Below are positions 3,062-39,125 of a stretch of DNA of 39,125 nucleotides, piece after piece. This stretch comes from a virus. The notes under the pieces were generated by a model that was given only the letters and a program-made list of their open reading frames with translations, was not told the origin of the DNA and searched no databases. Every line of letters starts with the position of its first letter. Positions within the stretch are counted from its first letter, which is position 1. The translations under genes were made by a program, and so were the position numbers. Where the stretch lies: IMG/VR virus record IMGVR_UViG_3300031566_000156. One strand, written 5' to 3'.

Positions 3062-3082
3062 GTTGTGTATATACAGATGTTA
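3062..3082 (-). repeat. Boundary motif A, copy 2 (TAACATCTGTATATACACAAC)
   Basis: 20/21 match to the family consensus. Overlaps the 3' bracket arm of the 3090-3416 cassette. Confidence 0.7.
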
Positions 3083-3442
3083 TGCGCAATTAGAGCCACT
3101 TACTAGCAACGCCAATTATTCGAAACGTAAATTTAAGTATTTGTATAAATTCATTAATGTTAGTTATTTCATTCATATTTTCATAAATAGCATTAGCCAT
3201 AATTACCTCTTTCTCCGTTTCAAAAGCTAGGTTACTAATCATTTCAATAGTTGAATGATAATATTTAATCTCTCCTTTATCCCATTTTATTGATATATGA
3301 GGGTAATCATTTTTAAACGTGTCTGCAAAATGGCTTCTTACCATCATTCTCTCATTAAGGTTAAGACCTTTTTCTTCTAATAAATTCCATGCTTTGTCGT
3401 GAGTTTCTTGGTTCATAATTTTAAGAATAAAAGCGCATAACA
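3078..3442 (-). repeat. Inverted-repeat-bracketed gene cassette (arms TGTTATGCGC 3078-3087 / GCGCATAACA 3433-3442)
   Basis: Perfect 10-bp inverted repeat: one arm 2 nt after the stop, the other 17 nt before the ATG at 3416. Confidence 0.75.
3090..3416 (-). CDS. Hypothetical protein (108 aa; track starts at a TTG at 3443)
   Basis: The track start is a TTG inside the bracket arm. The ATG at 3416 (MNQETHDKAWNLLEEKG...) is more plausible. Confidence 0.6.
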   Translation of the reverse strand: MNQETHDKAWNLLEEKGLNLNERMMVRSHFADTFKNDYPHISIKWDKGEIKYYHSTIEMISNLAFETEKEVIMANAIYENMNEITNINEFIQILKFTFRIIGVASKWL

Positions 3443-3445
3443 ACA

Positions 3446-3549
3446 GCTATAAATAATAGCGGTTTTAGTGCCATACGCAAGGTTTGTAATATTAATTTAA
3501 TTCATCTCGTTTTGATAATTTGTGCTATTTATCCGCTACTATTCATAGC
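3446..3549 (-). promoter_or_regulatory. Long-stem RNA hairpin element R1 (17-bp stem, about 70-nt loop), paralog of 28170-28277 and 37940-38044
   Basis: Minus-strand arms GCUAUGAAUAGUAGCGG / CCGCUAUUAUUUAUAGC pair over 17 bp with two G-U pairs. On the plus strand those positions would be A-C mismatches. Confidence 0.55.
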
Positions 3550-3591
3550 CAAACGTTATACATAATCGTAATTTTTTTTAGTTCTTTAATA

Positions 3592-4200: not shown

Positions 4201-4221
4201 GTTGGGTATATACAGATGTTA
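4201..4221 (-). repeat. Boundary motif A, copy 3 (TAACATCTGTATATACCCAAC), followed by TGTTAATAAGTGTTAAAA box (4174-4191)
   Basis: Exact match to the consensus. The TAA inside it is the stop codon of 4219-4461. Confidence 0.7.
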
Positions 4222-4461
4222 CGCACAAGCTTTCTTGAAGCATTGTAGCCATAAATTACACCACATTATTTGTATGTCAATACTTATGTGGTAATCGCTA
4301 TGTCCAGTATTTTTAAATACTCTTAACATTATCCCAAAATCATCCCACTCCCAAATTATGCAAGGTTTACAAAGCCAGTGCATAACACGCAATATAAAAT
4401 ATTTTTGACGTGGTGGTTTTTTGAATAATCTACTATTTTTATACTTTTCTGCTAAATTCAT
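4219..4461 (-). CDS. Hypothetical protein (80 aa)
   Basis: ORF track. Confidence 0.5.
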   Translation of the reverse strand: MNLAEKYKNSRLFKKPPRQKYFILRVMHWLCKPCIIWEWDDFGIMLRVFKNTGHSDYHISIDIQIMWCNLWLQCFKKACA

Positions 4462-4503
4462 AAGTTATACATTTTAATTAAAAACATTTCATATTGCCAT
4501 TCG

Positions 4504-4719
4504 TTATGCCTTATTTGCCAATCCACGCCTATGAAAATCATCCTGTATCAAAAATTCAGTTGTCAATATATCTCCATTGCTTATTTGTATCTGAAATTTA
4601 TTACAGTATTTTAATCTAATTAACTGTATTATTTTACCGCCCTTTCTTCCAAATCTATCAGTCCATTGGGGTACTATTTCACCTAATCTAAATCCGTAAA
4701 GCTTCTTTGTCCGTGTCAT
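4504..4719 (-). CDS. Hypothetical protein (71 aa), first gene after the late terminators
   Basis: ORF track. Lies downstream of the -7-like box at 4749-4756. Confidence 0.55.
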   Translation of the reverse strand: MTRTKKLYGFRLGEIVPQWTDRFGRKGGKIIQLIRLKYCNKFQIQISNGDILTTEFLIQDDFHRRGLANKA

Positions 4720-6036: not shown

Positions 6037-6411
6037 TTATTTTTTTACTATTAAAGGTAGTTCATCTATATTAATATACTTATTTTTTTTCTTTGGCTTC
6101 CAAATTGCACGAATAATAATATTAGTTGCTATTCCAGACAAAGCAGTAAAAGCAAAATCTGAATAAGAAAAGTATCCAGTATTAAAAGTATCATAAAACT
6201 CCTTGCTTGCAGCTCCTGTAATTGCTATTAGTGAGGGTGCAATTGGGTTCATCTCTTTGTATGAATATTGGCCAATCGTATACATCCCACTTGAAAGAAC
6301 TATACCAGCTCCAACATGATAGTATTTATCTTGCTTTATTTGAGCGTTTAAAGTAAAAGAAAATAGAAATAATATAGTTATTAGTTTTTTCATAATTATG
6401 TTATTGTCCAA
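6037..6411 (-). CDS. Secreted/membrane protein with N-terminal signal peptide (124 aa)
   Basis: MKKLITILFLFSFTLNAQ is a typical Bacteroidota-style signal sequence. Confidence 0.6.
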   Translation of the reverse strand: MDNNIIMKKLITILFLFSFTLNAQIKQDKYYHVGAGIVLSSGMYTIGQYSYKEMNPIAPSLIAITGAASKEFYDTFNTGYFSYSDFAFTALSGIATNIIIRAIWKPKKKNKYINIDELPLIVKK

Positions 6412-7640
6412 CCATTTGTAATTAGGTTATTATAAGCCGTGTCACTGGCACTTGTCCTTGCGGTGTTTCCTGTTATTATTTCTAAAGTTCCATTTATCCA
6501 ACCTGTCCCGTCTAAATTTATAAGTTGATTATCGTGTTCAGTTGCAGAAAGAGAATTGTTTTTAAAATCAATTTCAGCAGGTGTAGATGTTGCGTAAACT
6601 GATAAATCTATATTAGGTAAAGCGCATCCATCCATGTCAAAATTATTTAAACTTCCATTCCCCACAGATGCAAGTGTTATCCCTGTCATTAATGAATTAA
6701 ACCTCCAAATAACATTTGTGCCTGTAGGTACATTTGAAGCATTTACTGTGCCTGTGATATTACAGCTATATGCGTAAAATGTTGAAGTCAAGGTGTTACC
6801 TGAGCTTGCAAAGGTTATTCCTGTTAATAAAGAGTTAGAATGAGAATCGAATACTACACCAATAGGCACGTTAGATAAATTTAAAATTCCTGTTAAATTA
6901 CAGCTATAAACTTTAAAATCACTTACTAATGAGTTCCCTGAGCTTGCAAAGGTTATTCCTGTTAATAAAGTGTTAGAATACACTTGGAACAATCCTCCTA
7001 TCGGTACATTTGATAAATCTAAAACACCAGTTAAATTATTAGTATATAACCTAAATGCAGTAACTTTTACATTTCCTGAGCTTGCAAATGTAAGAGTTGT
7101 TAATGAAGAATTAGACCTAATTTCTACGCTTCCTCCTATTGGTACATTTGATAGATTTAATGATGTAATTGCCGTAAATCTTATAATTAAATTATTTACT
7201 ATACCATTACCAGAAGTTGCAAATATAATTTCTGTTAGCCCTGCGTTTGAATATGGTCTAAATATTCCACTAATAGGGGCTAATGACATATCTAAAACTC
7301 CTATATATAAATTGGTATTTATGTTAAATTCAGTTAATAATCCTGTTTTTAGTCCTGATATAAACGTAATCCTTGAATTATCAGCTACAAATTTAGTAAT
7401 ACCTAGTAAATCCCCTGTAATCTCAGCAATATAAGTTCCTGCTAAAGTGTAAGTATGCGTTAACTCAATACCACTTACAAAATTTTCTGTAGCACTTCCA
7501 TCCTTCCAATCAATTGTAAGTGTACCACTGGCAAAAGTTAAGTTAATGCCAGCAGTAAACCCAGCAGTTGGCGTCATTGTGATTTTAATAGCATCTGCTG
7601 ATACTTTTTGAGATAATAAACCAATAGGATAAGTAATCAT
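6396..7640 (-). CDS. Leucine-rich-repeat protein (414 aa), receptor-binding / tail-fibre candidate
   Basis: Five to six units of about 46 aa (LTGxLxLSNVPIGGxFxVYSNxLLTGITFASSGNxxxxxFxxYSCN), located directly after the large fibre-like gene. Confidence 0.75.
   Translation of the reverse strand: MITYPIGLLSQKVSADAIKITMTPTAGFTAGINLTFASGTLTIDWKDGSATENFVSGIELTHTYTLAGTYIAEITGDLLGITKFVADNSRITFISGLKTGLLTEFNINTNLYIGVLDMSLAPISGIFRPYSNAGLTEIIFATSGNGIVNNLIIRFTAITSLNLSNVPIGGSVEIRSNSSLTTLTFASSGNVKVTAFRLYTNNLTGVLDLSNVPIGGLFQVYSNTLLTGITFASSGNSLVSDFKVYSCNLTGILNLSNVPIGVVFDSHSNSLLTGITFASSGNTLTSTFYAYSCNITGTVNASNVPTGTNVIWRFNSLMTGITLASVGNGSLNNFDMDGCALPNIDLSVYATSTPAEIDFKNNSLSATEHDNQLINLDGTGWINGTLEIITGNTARTSASDTAYNNLITNGWTIT
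6799..6979. repeat. Near-identical DNA repeats inside the LRR gene (period 138 nt)
   Basis: CCTGAGCTTGCAAAGGTTATTCCTGTTAATAAAG occurs at 6799-6832 and 6937-6970 (34/34 identical, then 8/9). A third, diverged copy lies near 7075. Confidence 0.85.
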
Positions 7641-26482: not shown

Positions 26483-26692
26483 TATTTTTTTTAATTATTT
26501 AATATAGTTGTGGATATTTGGCATTTATGTTAATATTCCTAAAAATTCATTTAATAAATCTATCCGCAAATTTTACCATAAATATATTTTTCCCCCCCTC
26601 TTTACTTTTTTAAAAAGCATTTAAAAAGTTTCGTGCGTTTTTTATCATTTTTCGCTGTCATTTTATTTTTTTTGAAAACTAGAAAATGAACA

Positions 26693-27224
26693 CCCTATAA
26701 ATAGGGGCTTACAGAGGGGGCTAAATCAAAAATGTTCAGACTTTTTTGTCAAAGTTTAGGTTTTCAGAAATCGAAAATTTTTAAAAACTTTTTTTTCGTT
26801 TTCAAGGTTTCTAACTTTTCGAAAAAAGGTTTATACTTTTTCCTCGGTAAAAAGGTTTTGCGTTTTTGAAAATTTGCTTTATACTTTTTTGTCAAGAAAA
26901 AACTTTCCAACTTTTGAAAAAATACTTTTAACCTTGCGAGCAAAAATTTACTTTCTAAATTTTAAAAATTAGGTTTCAACTTTTTGGTTAAAATCTCAAA
27001 ACCTTTTTCTTAAAAAAATACTTTAAACTTTTTAGGCTAAAACTCAAAACCTAAATTTCGAAAAAAAGGTTTGTAATTTTTGTTCAACTTTCAGAAACCT
27101 AACTTTCGAAAAAAAACTTTCACACTTTTTACTTCCAGATAAAAACCTTTTTGAAAGAAAAAAAGTTTTGCATTTTTTGAAAAGTTAAAATCTCAAACCC
27201 TTATTTATAGGGGCTTACAGAGGG
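26693..27224. repeat. Iteron-like A/T-tract repeat array bracketed by direct repeats
   Basis: The flanks CCCTATAAATAGGGGCTTACAGAGGG (26693-26718) and CCCTTATTTATAGGGGCTTACAGAGGG (27198-27224) share 18 identical nt. Between them lie at least 12 degenerate GAAAAAA-NNTTT-NNN-ACTTTTT units plus two sharper sub-families. Confidence 0.85.
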
Positions 27225-27433
27225 TCACTTTTTAACTTTTTGCAAGTTTGTGCGATTTTTGCCGAAAAATCCTGAAACTTTTTATTTTTTTGAAAAAACT
27301 CAAAGAACGTTTTAATAATATATTTTTCGCTTAAAAAAGCTCAACCAATTCTTTCTTTCATCACAAATATACGAAATAAAATCTAACGCTTTCTTATTGT
27401 GTGATGCTAATAGTGGTTTAATGTATACCATAA

Positions 27434-27943: not shown

Positions 27944-28167
27944 TGTTATAGGGCATTTAAAGCCATTCTAACATCTTCCCAATATTTATGAGTTGATTTA
28001 TTTTGGTCAATAAACCAAGTTGGGTTTGAGTTCAATATTTCTTCTACTGCTATCAATGCGCACGTTTTTGCTGTTTTGCTATCAACATTACCATGTGTGT
28101 AGTACATTTTATTTGCTAATTCTACTGCTTTATCCTGTGGTGTCATAATTTAAAACGCCCTATAACA
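27944..28167 (-). repeat. Inverted-repeat-bracketed gene cassette (TGTTATAGGGC 27944-27954 / GCCCTATAACA 28157-28167)
   Basis: Perfect 11-bp inverted repeat. The 3' arm contains the stop codon, and the 5' arm lies 11 nt before the ATG at 28146. Confidence 0.75.
27946..28146 (-). CDS. Hypothetical protein (66 aa)
   Basis: ORF track. Confidence 0.6.
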   Translation of the reverse strand: MTPQDKAVELANKMYYTHGNVDSKTAKTCALIAVEEILNSNPTWFIDQNKSTHKYWEDVRMALNAL

Positions 28168-28169
28168 AT

Positions 28170-28277
28170 GTATATTATTCAGTGGCGTTATAGTGCTTAG
28201 TTTTAACCACTGTGCAGTCTTGCTAGTTTGTCGGTATGCGAAAAGTCCTGCAATCAATCGCCACCGAAATCATATAC
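28170..28277 (-). promoter_or_regulatory. Long-stem RNA hairpin element R2 (paralog of R1/R5)
   Basis: Arms GUAUAUGAUUUCGGUGGCG / CGCCACUGAAUAAUAUAC (about 17 pairs, one bulge, one mismatch). Followed by the 24-nt block 28280-28303, which is identical to 38047-38070. Confidence 0.5.
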
Positions 28278-28299
28278 TAAACGGTAGGCACAATAAAAA

Positions 28300-28485
28300 T
28301 TACTGCTTTCGTGCCATCATTCGGACGCATTCTTCTTTCATCATTTTTAGCCCACTTGCTTTCGTAACATCAGCAGAATAATCTTCACCAGACTTGTATT
28401 TTCGGATTATCTCTTTTTCAAGTTCTTTCAGTTCTTTATCGTACTCTAAAAACTGTTCGTGTATCATTTTAATTAATTCGCTCAT
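28300..28485 (-). CDS. Hypothetical protein (61 aa)
   Basis: ORF track. Confidence 0.55.
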   Translation of the reverse strand: MSELIKMIHEQFLEYDKELKELEKEIIRKYKSGEDYSADVTKASGLKMMKEECVRMMARKQ

Positions 28486-30123: not shown

Positions 30124-30144
30124 GTTGGGTATATACATGTGTTA
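30124..30144 (-). repeat. Boundary motif A, copy 4 (TAACACATGTATATACCCAAC)
   Basis: 19/21 match to the consensus. The TAA inside it is the stop of 30142-30399. Confidence 0.65.
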
Positions 30145-31041: not shown

Positions 31042-31202
31042 ACGGTTATTTAAGATAGGTATTGCGCCAAATATAGCAGAAGCAGTTCCAATCAACATTA
31101 CCCACCAACATTTCATAAATACTTGCATTTGTGTTAATTCTGGATTCATTGTCCAATATACAAACGGTGTTAATATACATACTACAAAAACAACCGTTAA
31201 CA
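31037..31202 (-). repeat. Inverted repeat TGTTAACGGTT (31037-31047) / AACCGTTAACA (31192-31202)
   Basis: Perfect 11-bp inverted repeat. It is homologous to the 32105/32388 pair with one compensated A-T to G-C change. Here the 5' arm lies inside the predicted ORF (codons 15-18). Confidence 0.6.
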
Positions 31203-31245
31203 AAATGTATAGCGCATTGCGCAAGCCTTTTAATAATTTTTTCAT
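31039..31245 (-). CDS. Small membrane protein (68 aa, two hydrophobic helices)
   Basis: ALYILLTVVFVVCILTPFVYW and WWVMLIGTASAIFGAIPIL. Preferred over the overlapping 31046-31312 ORF. Confidence 0.5.
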   Translation of the reverse strand: MKKLLKGLRNALYILLTVVFVVCILTPFVYWTMNPELTQMQVFMKCWWVMLIGTASAIFGAIPILNNR

Positions 31246-31289
31246 AATATTTAAAGTTTTTAATTATTAATAAAATTTCTACGTATTCG

Positions 31290-31308
31290 ATGGCGCAACG
31301 AACGCCAT
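31290..31308 (-). other. Perfect hairpin AUGGCG-N7-CGCCAU after the stop of 31319-31579
   Basis: 6-bp GC-rich stem with a 7-nt loop and no adjacent U-run. It could be a terminator or stability element; function unknown. Confidence 0.4.
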
Positions 31309-31318
31309 ACATAAATCG

Positions 31319-31579
31319 TTAATCATTTATATATAAATTAATAATATCATTTTCATTAAAAAATATAGACCATATCATTAATGCCATGCTTAATTTAACC
31401 AATAAACTAAATGCATAACTAAATGACAAGTCAGAACAATTACCAATTACTTTAATTATTGATTGTTCTGGTTGCTCAGTTTTTAAGGATAAAAATTTTA
31501 CATTTATTTTATTTTCATTCATGGCAATTTTAACCTTCAATGCAAGGTATTTAATTATTGTTATTTGTTTTCCTGTCAT
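31319..31579 (-). CDS. Hypothetical protein (86 aa)
   Basis: ORF track. Its start overlaps the stop of the upstream 59-aa ORF (ATGA). Confidence 0.55.
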   Translation of the reverse strand: MTGKQITIIKYLALKVKIAMNENKINVKFLSLKTEQPEQSIIKVIGNCSDLSFSYAFSLLVKLSMALMIWSIFFNENDIINLYIND

Positions 31580-31962: not shown

Positions 31963-31999
31963 TTCATTTCCTTTTAAATTAAACATTAATTGTTTGTGA

Positions 32000-32079
32000 T
32001 GTAAAGATACAGCCTTTCGGAACTGGAAACTATGATATTTATCATGTTTTTGAATTGTTTGTGTTAATAAGTGTTAAAA
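32000..32079 (-). promoter_or_regulatory. Early promoter-operator cassette, copy 2 (74/80 identical to 1820-1899)
   Basis: Contains -7-like TATCTTTA (32002-32009), ATGATATTTATCAT (32032-32045) and TGTTAATAAGTGTTAAAA (32062-32079). Confidence 0.65.
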
Positions 32080-32088
32080 TTATTTTAA

Positions 32089-32109
32089 GTTGGGGATATA
32101 CAGATGTTA
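32089..32109 (-). repeat. Boundary motif A, copy 6 (TAACATCTGTATATCCCCAAC)
   Basis: 20/21 match to the consensus, immediately 3' of the bracket arm. Confidence 0.7.
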
Positions 32110-32398
32110 GCGGTTATTGGTGAGATATTAAACCACCTGCGTTATTTGGGTCTAAATACAAGCGTTCACCTTTTTTAAAATCTGAGGTGTTAACATCCGT
32201 AATAACATGCTCAATTTGTGGTTTCATTCTTAATAACCTCCTAATCCATCCACATTTTAATTTGCATCTACCTACCTGTAGTACGAAGTCATTTTCATCT
32301 TTTATATAGCAAAGTTCGCCCTCTTTAAATGCTATTCCTGTATTGTTTTTAACCTTAATTAACTTTTCCATATCTATAAGTAATAACAACCGCTAACA
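32105..32398 (-). repeat. Inverted-repeat-bracketed gene cassette (TGTTAGCGGTT 32105-32115 / AACCGCTAACA 32388-32398)
   Basis: Perfect 11-bp inverted repeat. A third copy, GTTAGCGGT (32482-32490), can pair with the 5' arm instead. Confidence 0.75.
32114..32371 (-). CDS. Hypothetical protein (85 aa; track starts at a TTG at 32389)
   Basis: The track start is a TTG inside the bracket arm. The ATG at 32371 (MEKLIKVKNN...) is preferred. Confidence 0.6.
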   Translation of the reverse strand: MEKLIKVKNNTGIAFKEGELCYIKDENDFVLQVGRCKLKCGWIRRLLRMKPQIEHVITDVNTSDFKKGERLYLDPNNAGGLISHQ

Positions 32399-32494
32399 AG
32401 CGGTCATAGTTAATAAAGCCAATTAAGTTTTGTTCGTTGTAGGTTGCAGTGTGGGTGGCTTTACTAACCATACCGCCAGCCGTTAGCGGTAATG

Positions 32495-37193: not shown

Positions 37194-37493
37194 TTAGAAT
37201 CCAATCATCGTTGAATCTACTGGTGGGTAGTACCACATCCATTTAGTTTCGTTCTCTGGCTCGTCATAGTCAACTAAGGTGTCAGTGTGGAAACGCCACT
37301 GCATACTTTCAAAGCAAAAATAAGCCACCCCTTGCACGTTATTTTCGTCAATTATGCAAACATCTTCACTAAATGTAATATCGTCTTTACTTTGTTTAGG
37401 CTTATTTTTTTCGGGGTCAAATAAACGCACTACAACATTATGTAAAGTGCATGGCTGTTCGGTTTTTGAATTTTTTGTACTCATATCAATCAT
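37194..37493 (-). CDS. Hypothetical protein (99 aa)
   Basis: ORF track. Confidence 0.6.
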   Translation of the reverse strand: MIDMSTKNSKTEQPCTLHNVVVRLFDPEKNKPKQSKDDITFSEDVCIIDENNVQGVAYFCFESMQWRFHTDTLVDYDEPENETKWMWYYPPVDSTMIGF

Positions 37494-37552
37494 TATTTAA
37501 GTTTTAAAACTATGTAGCTTTTATTAGGCAGCCACGACACCATACATTTAAC

Positions 37553-37935
37553 GTTAGCCGTAATTAAAAGAAACATTCCACCAATGAATCAACGGCAGGT
37601 TTTAATACTTTAAAATATTCAGCTTTTTCGGGTCTTATATCGCCTTCTTCAATTCCATACCAAAACAATATTGGCAAAGGTATTTCTAAGTAATTTGCAA
37701 TTTTTTGTAATACTTCGGTGCTTGGTTGTTTTTGGTCATTCTCAATTTGGCTCAAATAGGTTTGAGTAATGCCAATATTTTGAGCAAATAATTCTTGAAT
37801 TTGTCGAGCTTTATTTACTCTAAGTCTTTTAATTGATTGTCCTAATTTCATATAATTATCGTTTTAAATTTAACCAAAGGTAATATATATTTCTAATAAT
37901 ACAAATTTAATTGATAGATATTAACTACGGCTAAC
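37553..37935 (-). repeat. Inverted-repeat-bracketed gene cassette (GTTAGCCGTA 37553-37562 / TACGGCTAAC 37926-37935)
   Basis: Perfect 10-bp inverted repeat. The 3' arm lies 1 nt after the stop, and the 5' arm lies 75 nt before the ATG at 37851. Confidence 0.7.
37564..37851 (-). CDS. XRE/Cro-CI-type HTH transcriptional regulator (95 aa)
   Basis: QELFAQNIGITQTYLSQIENDQKQPSTEVLQKIANYL is a canonical HTH_3 pattern. Confidence 0.85.
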   Translation of the reverse strand: MKLGQSIKRLRVNKARQIQELFAQNIGITQTYLSQIENDQKQPSTEVLQKIANYLEIPLPILFWYGIEEGDIRPEKAEYFKVLKPAVDSLVECFF

Positions 37936-37939
37936 AATG

Positions 37940-38044
37940 TATAAAAATAATAGCCGTTTCGGTGGTAATTTTAAAGTATCGTGCAACGTTGTAAAGTCCA
38001 GTAGGTTGATAGTTTTTCGCTCGCAATCGGCTACTATTCTTATA
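37940..38044 (-). promoter_or_regulatory. Long-stem RNA hairpin element R5 (paralog of R1/R2)
   Basis: Arms UAUAAGAAUAGUAGCCG / CGGCUAUUAUUUUUAUA form 17 bp, with G-U pairs at the same two positions as in R1. Confidence 0.55.
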
Positions 38045-38085
38045 CCAACGGTAGGCACAATAAAAATTACTTGCCTTTCAGTATC

Positions 38086-38998: not shown

Positions 38999-39125
38999 TA
39001 TTTTTATTGGTTATTTATTTCATCTATTAAGAGGGCTAATTGCTCTCTAATGTCTTGTAATTTTATTCCCGGTTCACCTGATAATTTAAATAATTCAGCT
39101 AATAAGTCGGTAACTATATCAGCAT
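38999..39125. repeat. Terminal direct repeat, copy 2 (identical to 1-127); carries a truncated second copy of the 6-182 ORF
   Basis: Exact match to 1-127; the window ends inside the repeat. Confidence 0.95.

Follow-up and report, generated by a model that had tools for sequence, protein, structure and literature searches.

Probable attC-like hairpin sites between the genes of a phage and in chromosomes of Bacteroidota and allied phyla

The phage genome and the R2 locus

The IMG/VR virus record IMGVR_UViG_3300031566_000156, a DNA of 39,125 nucleotides that we analysed at its full length and call the window, covers a complete phage genome (38,998 bp) together with a terminal repeat of 127 bp. 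The genome has 31% GC and carries every gene on the minus strand; the encoded proteins include a large terminase, NinG and a Rad52/Erf-like annealase. Long hairpins lie between genes on the same strand, to which all element coordinates in the window refer. An initial annotation of the sequence had pointed out three of them, R1, R2 and R5, which are indeed paralogous hairpins and lie where it had placed them. Our analysis suggests that they probably represent a family of attC-like recombination sites, i.e. the sites of an integron-like cassette system present in Bacteroidota, allied phyla and phages.

R2 is a site of 130 nt (28159-28288), scored at 38.3 bits (E 8.5e-6) by the covariance model described below and 100% identical in three related contigs. 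Its 5' box CCTACCG (28282-28288), a variant of the family consensus nnYTAACG, pairs with the 3' box TGTTATAGG (28159-28167; family consensus TGTTAKR), which lies 12 nt upstream of the ATG of the open reading frame (ORF) at 27946-28146. Between the boxes the 5' arm GTATATGATTTCGGTGGCG (28259-28277) pairs in the predicted fold with the 3' arm CGCCACTGAATAATATAC (28170-28187), in two segments of 10 bp and 6 bp with an internal loop between them. The arms enclose a variable interior of 71 nt (28188-28258), the counterpart of the variable terminal structure of attC sites. We propose that the 5' box is the R box and would contain the crossover point, as the junctions seen at this box in other copies suggest.

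The junction upstream of R2 is repeated at R5. A block of 24 nt at 28280-28303 is identical to the block at 38047-38070, where chance would give no such repeat, and the similarity runs on to about 35 nt at 91%. The block had been described as starting at or overlapping the upstream stop codon. This holds for R2, where it consists of the upstream cassette end (stop TAA at 28300-28302), the 5' box and two spacer bases, and fails for R5, where the TGA of the upstream ORF lies 16 nt before the block. If the elements are attC-like sites, the block is most likely an upstream cassette end plus a 5' box, and the fact that R2 and R5 have it in identical form, down to the unusual TACCG variant, points to a common descent of both junctions. 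The two elements also have the segment TATACATTGTTA in common, as the annotation had claimed, and the stretch GTAATTTTTATTGT is found before the box in the related locus L094 as well.

R1 (3434-3560, 106.5 bits) and R5 (37928-38056, 97.5 bits) have arms of the AATAGTAG type, each forming a stem of 18-19 bp around an interior of 70-71 nt. The R1 stem pairs 3444-3462 with 3533-3551, and its outer helix is TATAACG/TGTTATG. The length of about 105 nt given earlier for the elements missed the outer helix TAACG/TGTTA, and each element is about 25 nt longer. The four pair-preserving double changes between R1 and R5 (G-C/U-A, C-G/A-U, U-A/A-U and G-C/C-G) are borne out by the arms, and so are the two G.U (G.T) wobbles kept in both, which would be A.C on the other strand. 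GC-rich interiors were found in R2 (0.40) and R5 (0.39) against 0.31 for the genome, the R1 interior being lower (0.27). Neither a known RNA family nor a tRNA had been recognised in these elements, in agreement with our searches: Rfam gave no match at R1, R2 or R5 even at E<=10, and ARAGORN called no tRNA at the elements. The hairpins are not a set of three, as the covariance model recognises no fewer than seven of them in the window, every one on the minus strand. Judging from the sequence, the window most likely holds a cluster of at least seven attC-like sites in the accessory and early regions of the genome, with no integrase.

Architecture and covariation of the family

The elements share a common layout across many phage contigs. 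A pattern search of IMG/VR with the arm core of R1 and R5 and a gap (AATAGTAGSSS N55-85 SSSCTATTATT) returned 34 loci, with spans of 92-96 nt in nearly all of them. In the layout the 5' box nnYTAACG and the 3' box TGTTAKR form an outer helix, inside which come an unpaired spacer, a stem of 18-19 bp and the interior. We aligned 29 copies, in which 92.6% of the cells are paired overall and 97.9% in the stem. The initial annotation had named covariation as a check on the structure; in the family alignment six stem pairs covary, and the observed score was reached by none of 500 shuffles. The covariance model built from this alignment scores far higher on the sense strand than on the antisense strand (106 vs 40 bits). 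RNA folding agrees with this polarity: the minus strands of R1, R2 and R5 fold better than shuffled sequences (z = -3.7, -4.2 and -3.6, respectively), and their plus strands fold poorly, no better than shuffles. With DNA parameters R2 folds at z = -2.9.

The most conserved columns of the family are TAACG and TGTTA. Among 85 phage-type copies the 5' box reads n-n-n-T(72)/C(10)-A(85)-A(79)-C(85), then G(79), and the 3' box T(80)-G(77)-T(82)-T(83)-A(65). All folds, and the alignment too, show the spacer as an asymmetric internal loop, with about 4-5 nt on the 5' side (G/T-T-n-n) vs 2-3 nt on the 3' side. The window copies are strongly diverged from each other, the common parts being the boxes and portions of the arms; what diverged copies in general retain is limited to both boxes, the wobble positions and the stem base (GTATAWG / WTTATAC). 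Interiors belong to several unrelated subfamilies and measure between 0 and about 70 nt; whole elements are 55 to about 135 nt long. RNAalifold gave no consensus interior structure across the subfamilies.

In phage contigs the elements form same-strand arrays of up to about 10 copies, 270-1,200 nt apart and one per small gene, e.g. 10 copies in L104 and 10 or so in L099. They take up the space between genes: in about one fifth of the copies TAACG itself supplies the upstream stop codon TAA, or else this codon lies 5-7 nt before the box, and the next start codon follows 9-21 nt past the 3' box.

Some copies show additional features. In a subfamily represented by L099, L100, L106, L109, L114, L120 and L125 the conservation extends 32-48 nt beyond the 3' box (GGCTTTCGTTTTGTGCGGTGGGATAAAA), reaching the next start codon; a pairing of this extension with the interior motif CCTACACGCA is conceivable, with support mostly from wobble pairs. 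The copy at 3911-4038 of L103, a 312-kb IMG/VR contig, has a tRNA-like interior with two T-arm hairpins, GGTTCGATTCC and GGTTCGACTCC, and an acceptor-like stem of 7 bp that the inner arm forms; the tRNA model of Rfam gives it 27.6 bits (cut-off 29), and ARAGORN makes no call. We considered a tRNA or Y RNA mimic for the family and rejected it, the T arms being present in the L103 copy alone and no tRNA genes lying near the other copies. A protein-coding reading was rejected too. Two frames are open through R5; stop codons are numerous in R1 and R2, and within the family the spacer differs by 1-3 nt in length. Finally, an attenuator-type alternative hairpin between the 3' arm and a downstream TTAGSSS fits R5, R2 and L093, not most family members, and was dropped; such pairing arises in these three because the 3' box must pair with the 5' box.

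Strand asymmetry in phages and bacteria

The same pattern matches at least 120 bacterial genomes, nearly all of them from Bacteroidota and allied phyla. Flavobacteriaceae, Bacteroidales, Prolixibacteraceae and Marinilabiliales are among the matches listed, and so are Chlorobiota, Melioribacteraceae, Marinimicrobia and Cloacimonadota. An 8-kb stretch of a Lacinutrix chromosome (locus L207) contains at least 9-11 copies, with the real genes on the opposite strand; several flanking genes in chromosomal arrays such as this one presumably encode acetyltransferase, glyoxalase, SRPBCC and toxin-antitoxin proteins, judged by eye. Most bacterial loci examined have only one or two copies. The pairs in the bacterial copies comprise 2,884 Watson-Crick, 503 G.T and 55 A.C pairs, and three G.T positions are nearly invariant.

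The orientation of the adjacent genes relative to the foldable strand is reversed between viral and bacterial loci. In viral loci 102 of 115 adjacent genes are on the foldable strand and 13 on the opposite one; in bacterial loci 202 of 216 are on the opposite strand and 14 on the same. The bacterial copies have the same arms and the same wobbles as the phage copies, and since the flanking genes run opposite to the foldable strand, an mRNA in these bacteria would carry the A.C version. The asymmetry is hence a feature of the DNA and not of the mRNA, for the gene strand flips between phages and bacteria and the wobbles stay. A structure selected in mRNA cannot explain this flip, and a structure selected on one DNA strand can. 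The initial annotation was right to regard the elements as selected strand-specific hairpins rather than decaying transposon ends, and its step from the G-U wobbles to a selected RNA fails on the bacterial copies. It had weighed an RNA structure against a binding site in double-stranded DNA, which left out a recombination site in folded single-stranded DNA. Strand-specific covariation compatible with G.U pairs is no proof of an RNA by itself.

An alternative hypothesis could be that the hairpins are structured RNAs in the polycistronic mRNAs of phages, acting as RNase III-type processing sites, as mRNA stabilisers or in stop-start translational coupling. The folding of the sense strand as RNA (z = -3.6 to -4.5) together with the poor folding of the antisense strand would agree with such a role, and so would the match between the foldable strand and the mRNA strand in phages, the tight fit between the stop codon of one cistron and the start codon of the next, and the possible pairing of the interior with the downstream flank in one subfamily. 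We nevertheless consider it unlikely, as the bacterial copies are antisense to their flanking genes with the same wobble positions, the strongest conservation is in the primary sequence of two short boxes, the interior may be absent altogether, and Rfam has no match. The linkage to tyrosine recombinases and the junctions at the box, described below, also speak against it. A role at the RNA level is plausible as a secondary effect in phages, where the hairpins are transcribed within mRNAs, and fails as an explanation for the whole family.

Junctions at the 5' box

Homology between loci tends to begin or stop at the AAC of the 5' box. Copies about 90% identical were found between unrelated genes in different phages, where the homology starts at -1 to 0 relative to AAC, and the phage contig junctions overall fall at -1 to +3. 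The loci L127 and L119 have a duplicated unit of element plus downstream gene with its left edge at AAC. Among the relatives of the window phage, L088 carries R5 with an unrelated upstream flank, the homology beginning at the 5' box. L093 does not have R1 at the corresponding position, where the homology stops right after AACG, and carries another copy elsewhere. The window element at 32390-32487 recurs in L093 at 88% identity with both flanks unrelated and with boundaries at TAACG and GTTAGC.

Bacterial loci give a similar picture. Their left junctions cluster at 0, and the homology ends 7-15 nt into the next element; the internal duplicates of L207 begin at the 5' box. A unit of element plus gene, 982 nt long, is 99.8% identical in L164 and L193, which come from a Flavobacterium bin and a Melioribacteraceae bin, the AAC of the box being the exact start of the common segment. 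Either a recent transfer between phyla or a binning error accounts for this identity.

We also considered linkers of the PeSL type, i.e. promoter/terminator spacers between which genes would be shuffled by the homologous recombination of the phage, through its Rad52/Erf-like annealase and NinG. Both proteins are encoded in the window, the conserved unit is the whole intergenic spacer with unrelated flanking ORFs, and a start-associated motif, D4, is a junction as well; the PeSLs of T4-type phages behave in this way (PMC2839356, PMC4122927). This explanation appears quite unlikely to us. The surroundings of four elements contain no terminator-like sites, and promoter-like matches at the four are at the level of shuffled sequences, with the sigma-70 consensus, which is not that of Bacteroidota, as the query. 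Moreover, the junctions are in a 5-nt box and not in the much longer identical arms, the same elements are antisense to genes in bacterial chromosomes, and the linked enzyme is a site-specific recombinase.

Linked tyrosine recombinases

A tyrosine recombinase adjoins the array in L201 (Winogradskyella) and in L132. The best NCBIfam family for recombinases of this type is 'site-specific tyrosine recombinase/integron integrase' (229.7 bits, cut-off 220), and the closest structural matches in the PDB are XerA and IntI4. In 80 metagenomic relatives of the recombinase all 18 covariance-model matches are downstream of the gene on the opposite strand, a geometry that we take to be the 'inverted integrase' arrangement of integrons. 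In 80 viral relatives (37-48% identity) 123 of the 124 matches are on the recombinase strand; about 120 are upstream of the gene, as read from the match table, and the arrays end 230-430 nt before its start. We take this to be the canonical layout of an attC bottom strand and its integrase. In one viral locus, L370, all ORFs run in one direction and the recombinase precedes a DnaB-like helicase. As a control, 800 kb of phage early regions from 80 loci with a Rad52-like protein gave no covariance-model matches. Many of the metagenome contigs L248-L272 with an L201-type recombinase end about 50-300 nt past its stop codon, which would be expected if repeated downstream sites break the assemblies.

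The spread of the hairpins could also be ascribed to selfish REP/REPIN- or MITE-like elements mobilised on single-stranded DNA by an HUH/Y1 transposase (RAYT, IS200/IS605 type). That the present elements are intergenic hairpins of about 100-130 nt with GTAG in the arm, the low copy number in most bacterial loci, the copies of about 90% identity between unrelated genes in different phages and the nearly identical 982-nt unit in bins named as different phyla would all fit. In our view this is very unlikely, given that the copies within a genome are strongly diverged and that the arrays have one element per gene. The tyrosine recombinase was the only linked enzyme found, with no systematic search made for RAYT/TnpA linkage. 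Integron cassettes inserted outside integrons would give single copies just as well (10.1101/2022.09.11.507474).

Other elements and repeats in the window

Four further copies were found in the window besides R1, R2 and R5. R6 (4379-4508; 45.3 bits, E 2.6e-7) has an 18-bp stem and a 73-nt loop, and a scan for long-range stems over the whole minus strand ranks R5, R1 and the R6 element (4389-4497) as the top three. The copy at 31194-31323 (37.3 bits, E 1.4e-5) has different arms (TGTATGGCG..GTTGCGC / GCGCAATGCGCTATACA). The copy at 32390-32487 (31.4 bits) is a short form of 98 nt, and the one at 37429-37558 (31.8 bits, E 2.2e-4) lies 5 nt past the stop codon of a helix-turn-helix gene and matches an element in the recombinase-bearing phage locus L351 at 76%. 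Gene callers start or extend ORFs into the hairpins, as seen for 4219-4461 and 37194-37493 in the window and for 110-328 in L088, a 72-aa ORF that reads straight through R5. The called start of the ORF at 4219-4461 is inside the R6 interior, and an in-frame ATG in the R6 3' box (GTTATGC) may be its true start.

The D4 motif TAACATCTGTATATAC occurs at 3067-3082 and, in the same scan, at 2164-2179, 4206-4221, 30129-30144 and 32094-32109, all on the minus strand (five matches vs 0.32 expected). In its longer form, TAACATCTGTATATAC(A/C)CAAC...AAAAAATG, it immediately precedes several start codons and is confined to the lineage of the window phage. D4 is a mosaic junction too, the homology in L093 starting exactly at its TAAC. 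With its box, 4-nt spacer and GTATA it looks like the element's 5' half, and it may be a half-site, an attI-like site, or a promoter or leader.

Other repeats were noticed in the window. An intergenic 90-nt repeat, 89% identical between 1815-1904 and 31995-32084, contains the palindrome ATGACATATGTCAT and is conserved in L090, L092 and L093; a weak covariance-model match at 1808-1943 (26 bits) overlaps its first copy. The region 26483-27433, about 0.9 kb almost without coding potential, has several direct and inverted repeats (TTTCGAAAAAAAGGTTT, AAACCTAA...) and could be an origin or a regulatory region. Within the ORF at 6396-7640, the putative tail or receptor-binding protein of 414 aa, five tandem copies of a 138-nt unit (6658-7338) encode 46-residue repeats. 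The terminal repeat is an exact direct repeat of 127 bp at 1-127 and 38999-39125. Two more gene products, presumably a DnaB-type helicase and a tape-measure protein, were assigned by reading the translations.

The window phage has near-identical contigs in soil and sediment metagenomes and no close relative among deposited phages, as none of the INPHARED phages matches it. When part of the 24-nt block was searched for exactly in IMG/VR, the only matches were two chance ones, both in coding sequence. The relatives found through the flanking proteins (80 loci for the Rad52-like protein, one for NinG) have no sequence match to the elements.

Interpretation as attC-like sites

The attC sites of integrons act as folded bottom strands, in which the R boxes RYYYAAC/GTTRRRY pair and an unpaired central spacer, extrahelical bases and a variable terminal structure are present; the crossover in RYYYAAC is on the bottom strand between A and C, and the part 5' of this point is exchanged (PMC7439510). 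The last four positions of the boxes in our family fit RYYYAAC/GTTRRRY, and the first three fit weakly (51%, 61% and 44%). The central spacer is unpaired, the tip varies in length and sequence, and one strand is foldable whatever the orientation of the genes. By comparative evidence the cassettes are bounded at the A/C of the R box.

The following route could account for these features. When the coding strand of the phage is single-stranded, the site would fold into a hairpin in which the 5' box nnYTAACG pairs with the 3' box TGTTAKR; beyond the boxes, a spacer would stay unpaired before a long stem that contains the fixed G.T wobbles and ends in a variable tip. A tyrosine recombinase of the Xer/IntI type would bind this hairpin and exchange strands between A and C of TAAC. 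The hairpin and the downstream ORF up to the next TAA would then be excised, inserted or swapped as a cassette. The structure, its covariation, a strand asymmetry that does not depend on transcription, the arrays, the positions of the junctions and the linkage to recombinases are observed; the folding of the single strand in vivo, the catalysis, the exact bond cleaved and circular intermediates are what we infer for this route.

Several observations weigh against this interpretation. The window encodes no tyrosine recombinase, and the ORFs of the phages are on the bottom, i.e. folding, strand, the reverse of normal cassettes. Conceivably the coding strand is the one exposed in phage replication, or an RNA hairpin brings an added benefit. 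The extrahelical bases amount to a bulge between two wobble positions in a subset of the copies, inconsistent in identity and position in a noisy analysis, and the long interiors are largely unpaired, unlike in large canonical attC sites. With DNA parameters R1 (z = -0.66) and R5 (z = +0.17) fold no better than shuffles. The covariance model has a seed of one arm type. The junction evidence is comparative throughout. The linked recombinases score 194.6 and 151 bits with the integron-integrase model TIGR02249, short of the 265 required, and align to IntI4 (2a3v) in two separate stretches; the sequences suggest that the IntI-specific insertion is missing. The polarity of recombinase and array could come partly from the genome layout, with all phage genes on one strand.

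Published surveys report almost no integrons in Bacteroidetes (PMC9024848), and describe single and clustered attC sites without an integrase in bacteria only (10.1101/2022.09.11.507474). In the literature we found no account of attC-like arrays in phages or of the present family in Bacteroidota. Integron-like systems may be much broader than detection tools show and may reach into viruses; we say so because one narrow pattern led to at least 120 genomes and many phage contigs, and because the recombinase apparently has no IntI domain.

We put forward tentatively, as a distinct possibility that we do not favour outright, that in phages of Bacteroidota and allied phyla the early and accessory genes are arranged as integron-like mobile cassettes, many of these phages having a Xer/IntI-like recombinase of their own at the array's end and others, such as the window phage, relying on one supplied in trans. 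It is an old open question whether precise swaps at gene boundaries in phages come from illegitimate recombination plus selection or from conserved 'linker' sequences. If the proposal is true, site-specific recombination of folded single-stranded hairpins would be a main engine of the mosaicism at gene boundaries in these phages and would open a direct route of gene exchange with the chromosomal cassette arrays of the hosts, and the phage hairpins, being transcribed, may double as RNA elements. A hairpin with a defined crossover and a candidate recombinase would make the question of mosaicism directly testable in these phages.

Comparison with known systems

The closest known system is the attC site of integrons. 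Both are imperfect inverted repeats whose terminal boxes (...YAAC / GTTR...) pair; a spacer stays unpaired between these and a second paired box, and the tip is variable. In both, one strand folds better, the sites form same-orientation arrays with one site per gene, and an Xer/IntI-clade tyrosine recombinase is a neighbour; clusters and single sites without an integrase exist in both, and the inferred crossover lies, on the folding strand, between A and C of the 5' box. The present family differs in its occurrence in virulent-looking phage genomes with the ORFs on the folding (bottom) strand, in an asymmetry due to three fixed G.T wobbles rather than to consistent extrahelical bases, and in a long interior that is mostly unpaired. 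Its recombinases are Xer-like, apparently without the IntI-specific insertion and below the curated cut-off.

The PeSLs of T4-type phages are also small conserved intergenic cassettes in plastic regions, where they mark the bounds of gene insertion, deletion and replacement. A PeSL consists of a sigma-70 promoter and a terminator hairpin and recombines by homology, whereas the junctions of the present family keep to a box of 5 nt, and the linked enzyme is a site-specific recombinase. The RNase III hairpins of T7-type phages resemble our elements in being paralogous, in lying between cistrons, in having an internal loop and in their place on the sense strand of a phage genome that is transcribed from one strand; they are about 50-60 nt long, are defined at the RNA level, and have neither an antisense counterpart in the host nor a linked recombinase. 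REP/REPIN sequences (RAYT) share with the family the extragenic hairpin repeat acting as single-stranded DNA and the GTAG motif. REPINs are near-identical, multi-copy and linked to an HUH transposase, whereas in the present family each gene has one copy, the copies of a genome are diverged and the linked enzyme is a tyrosine recombinase.

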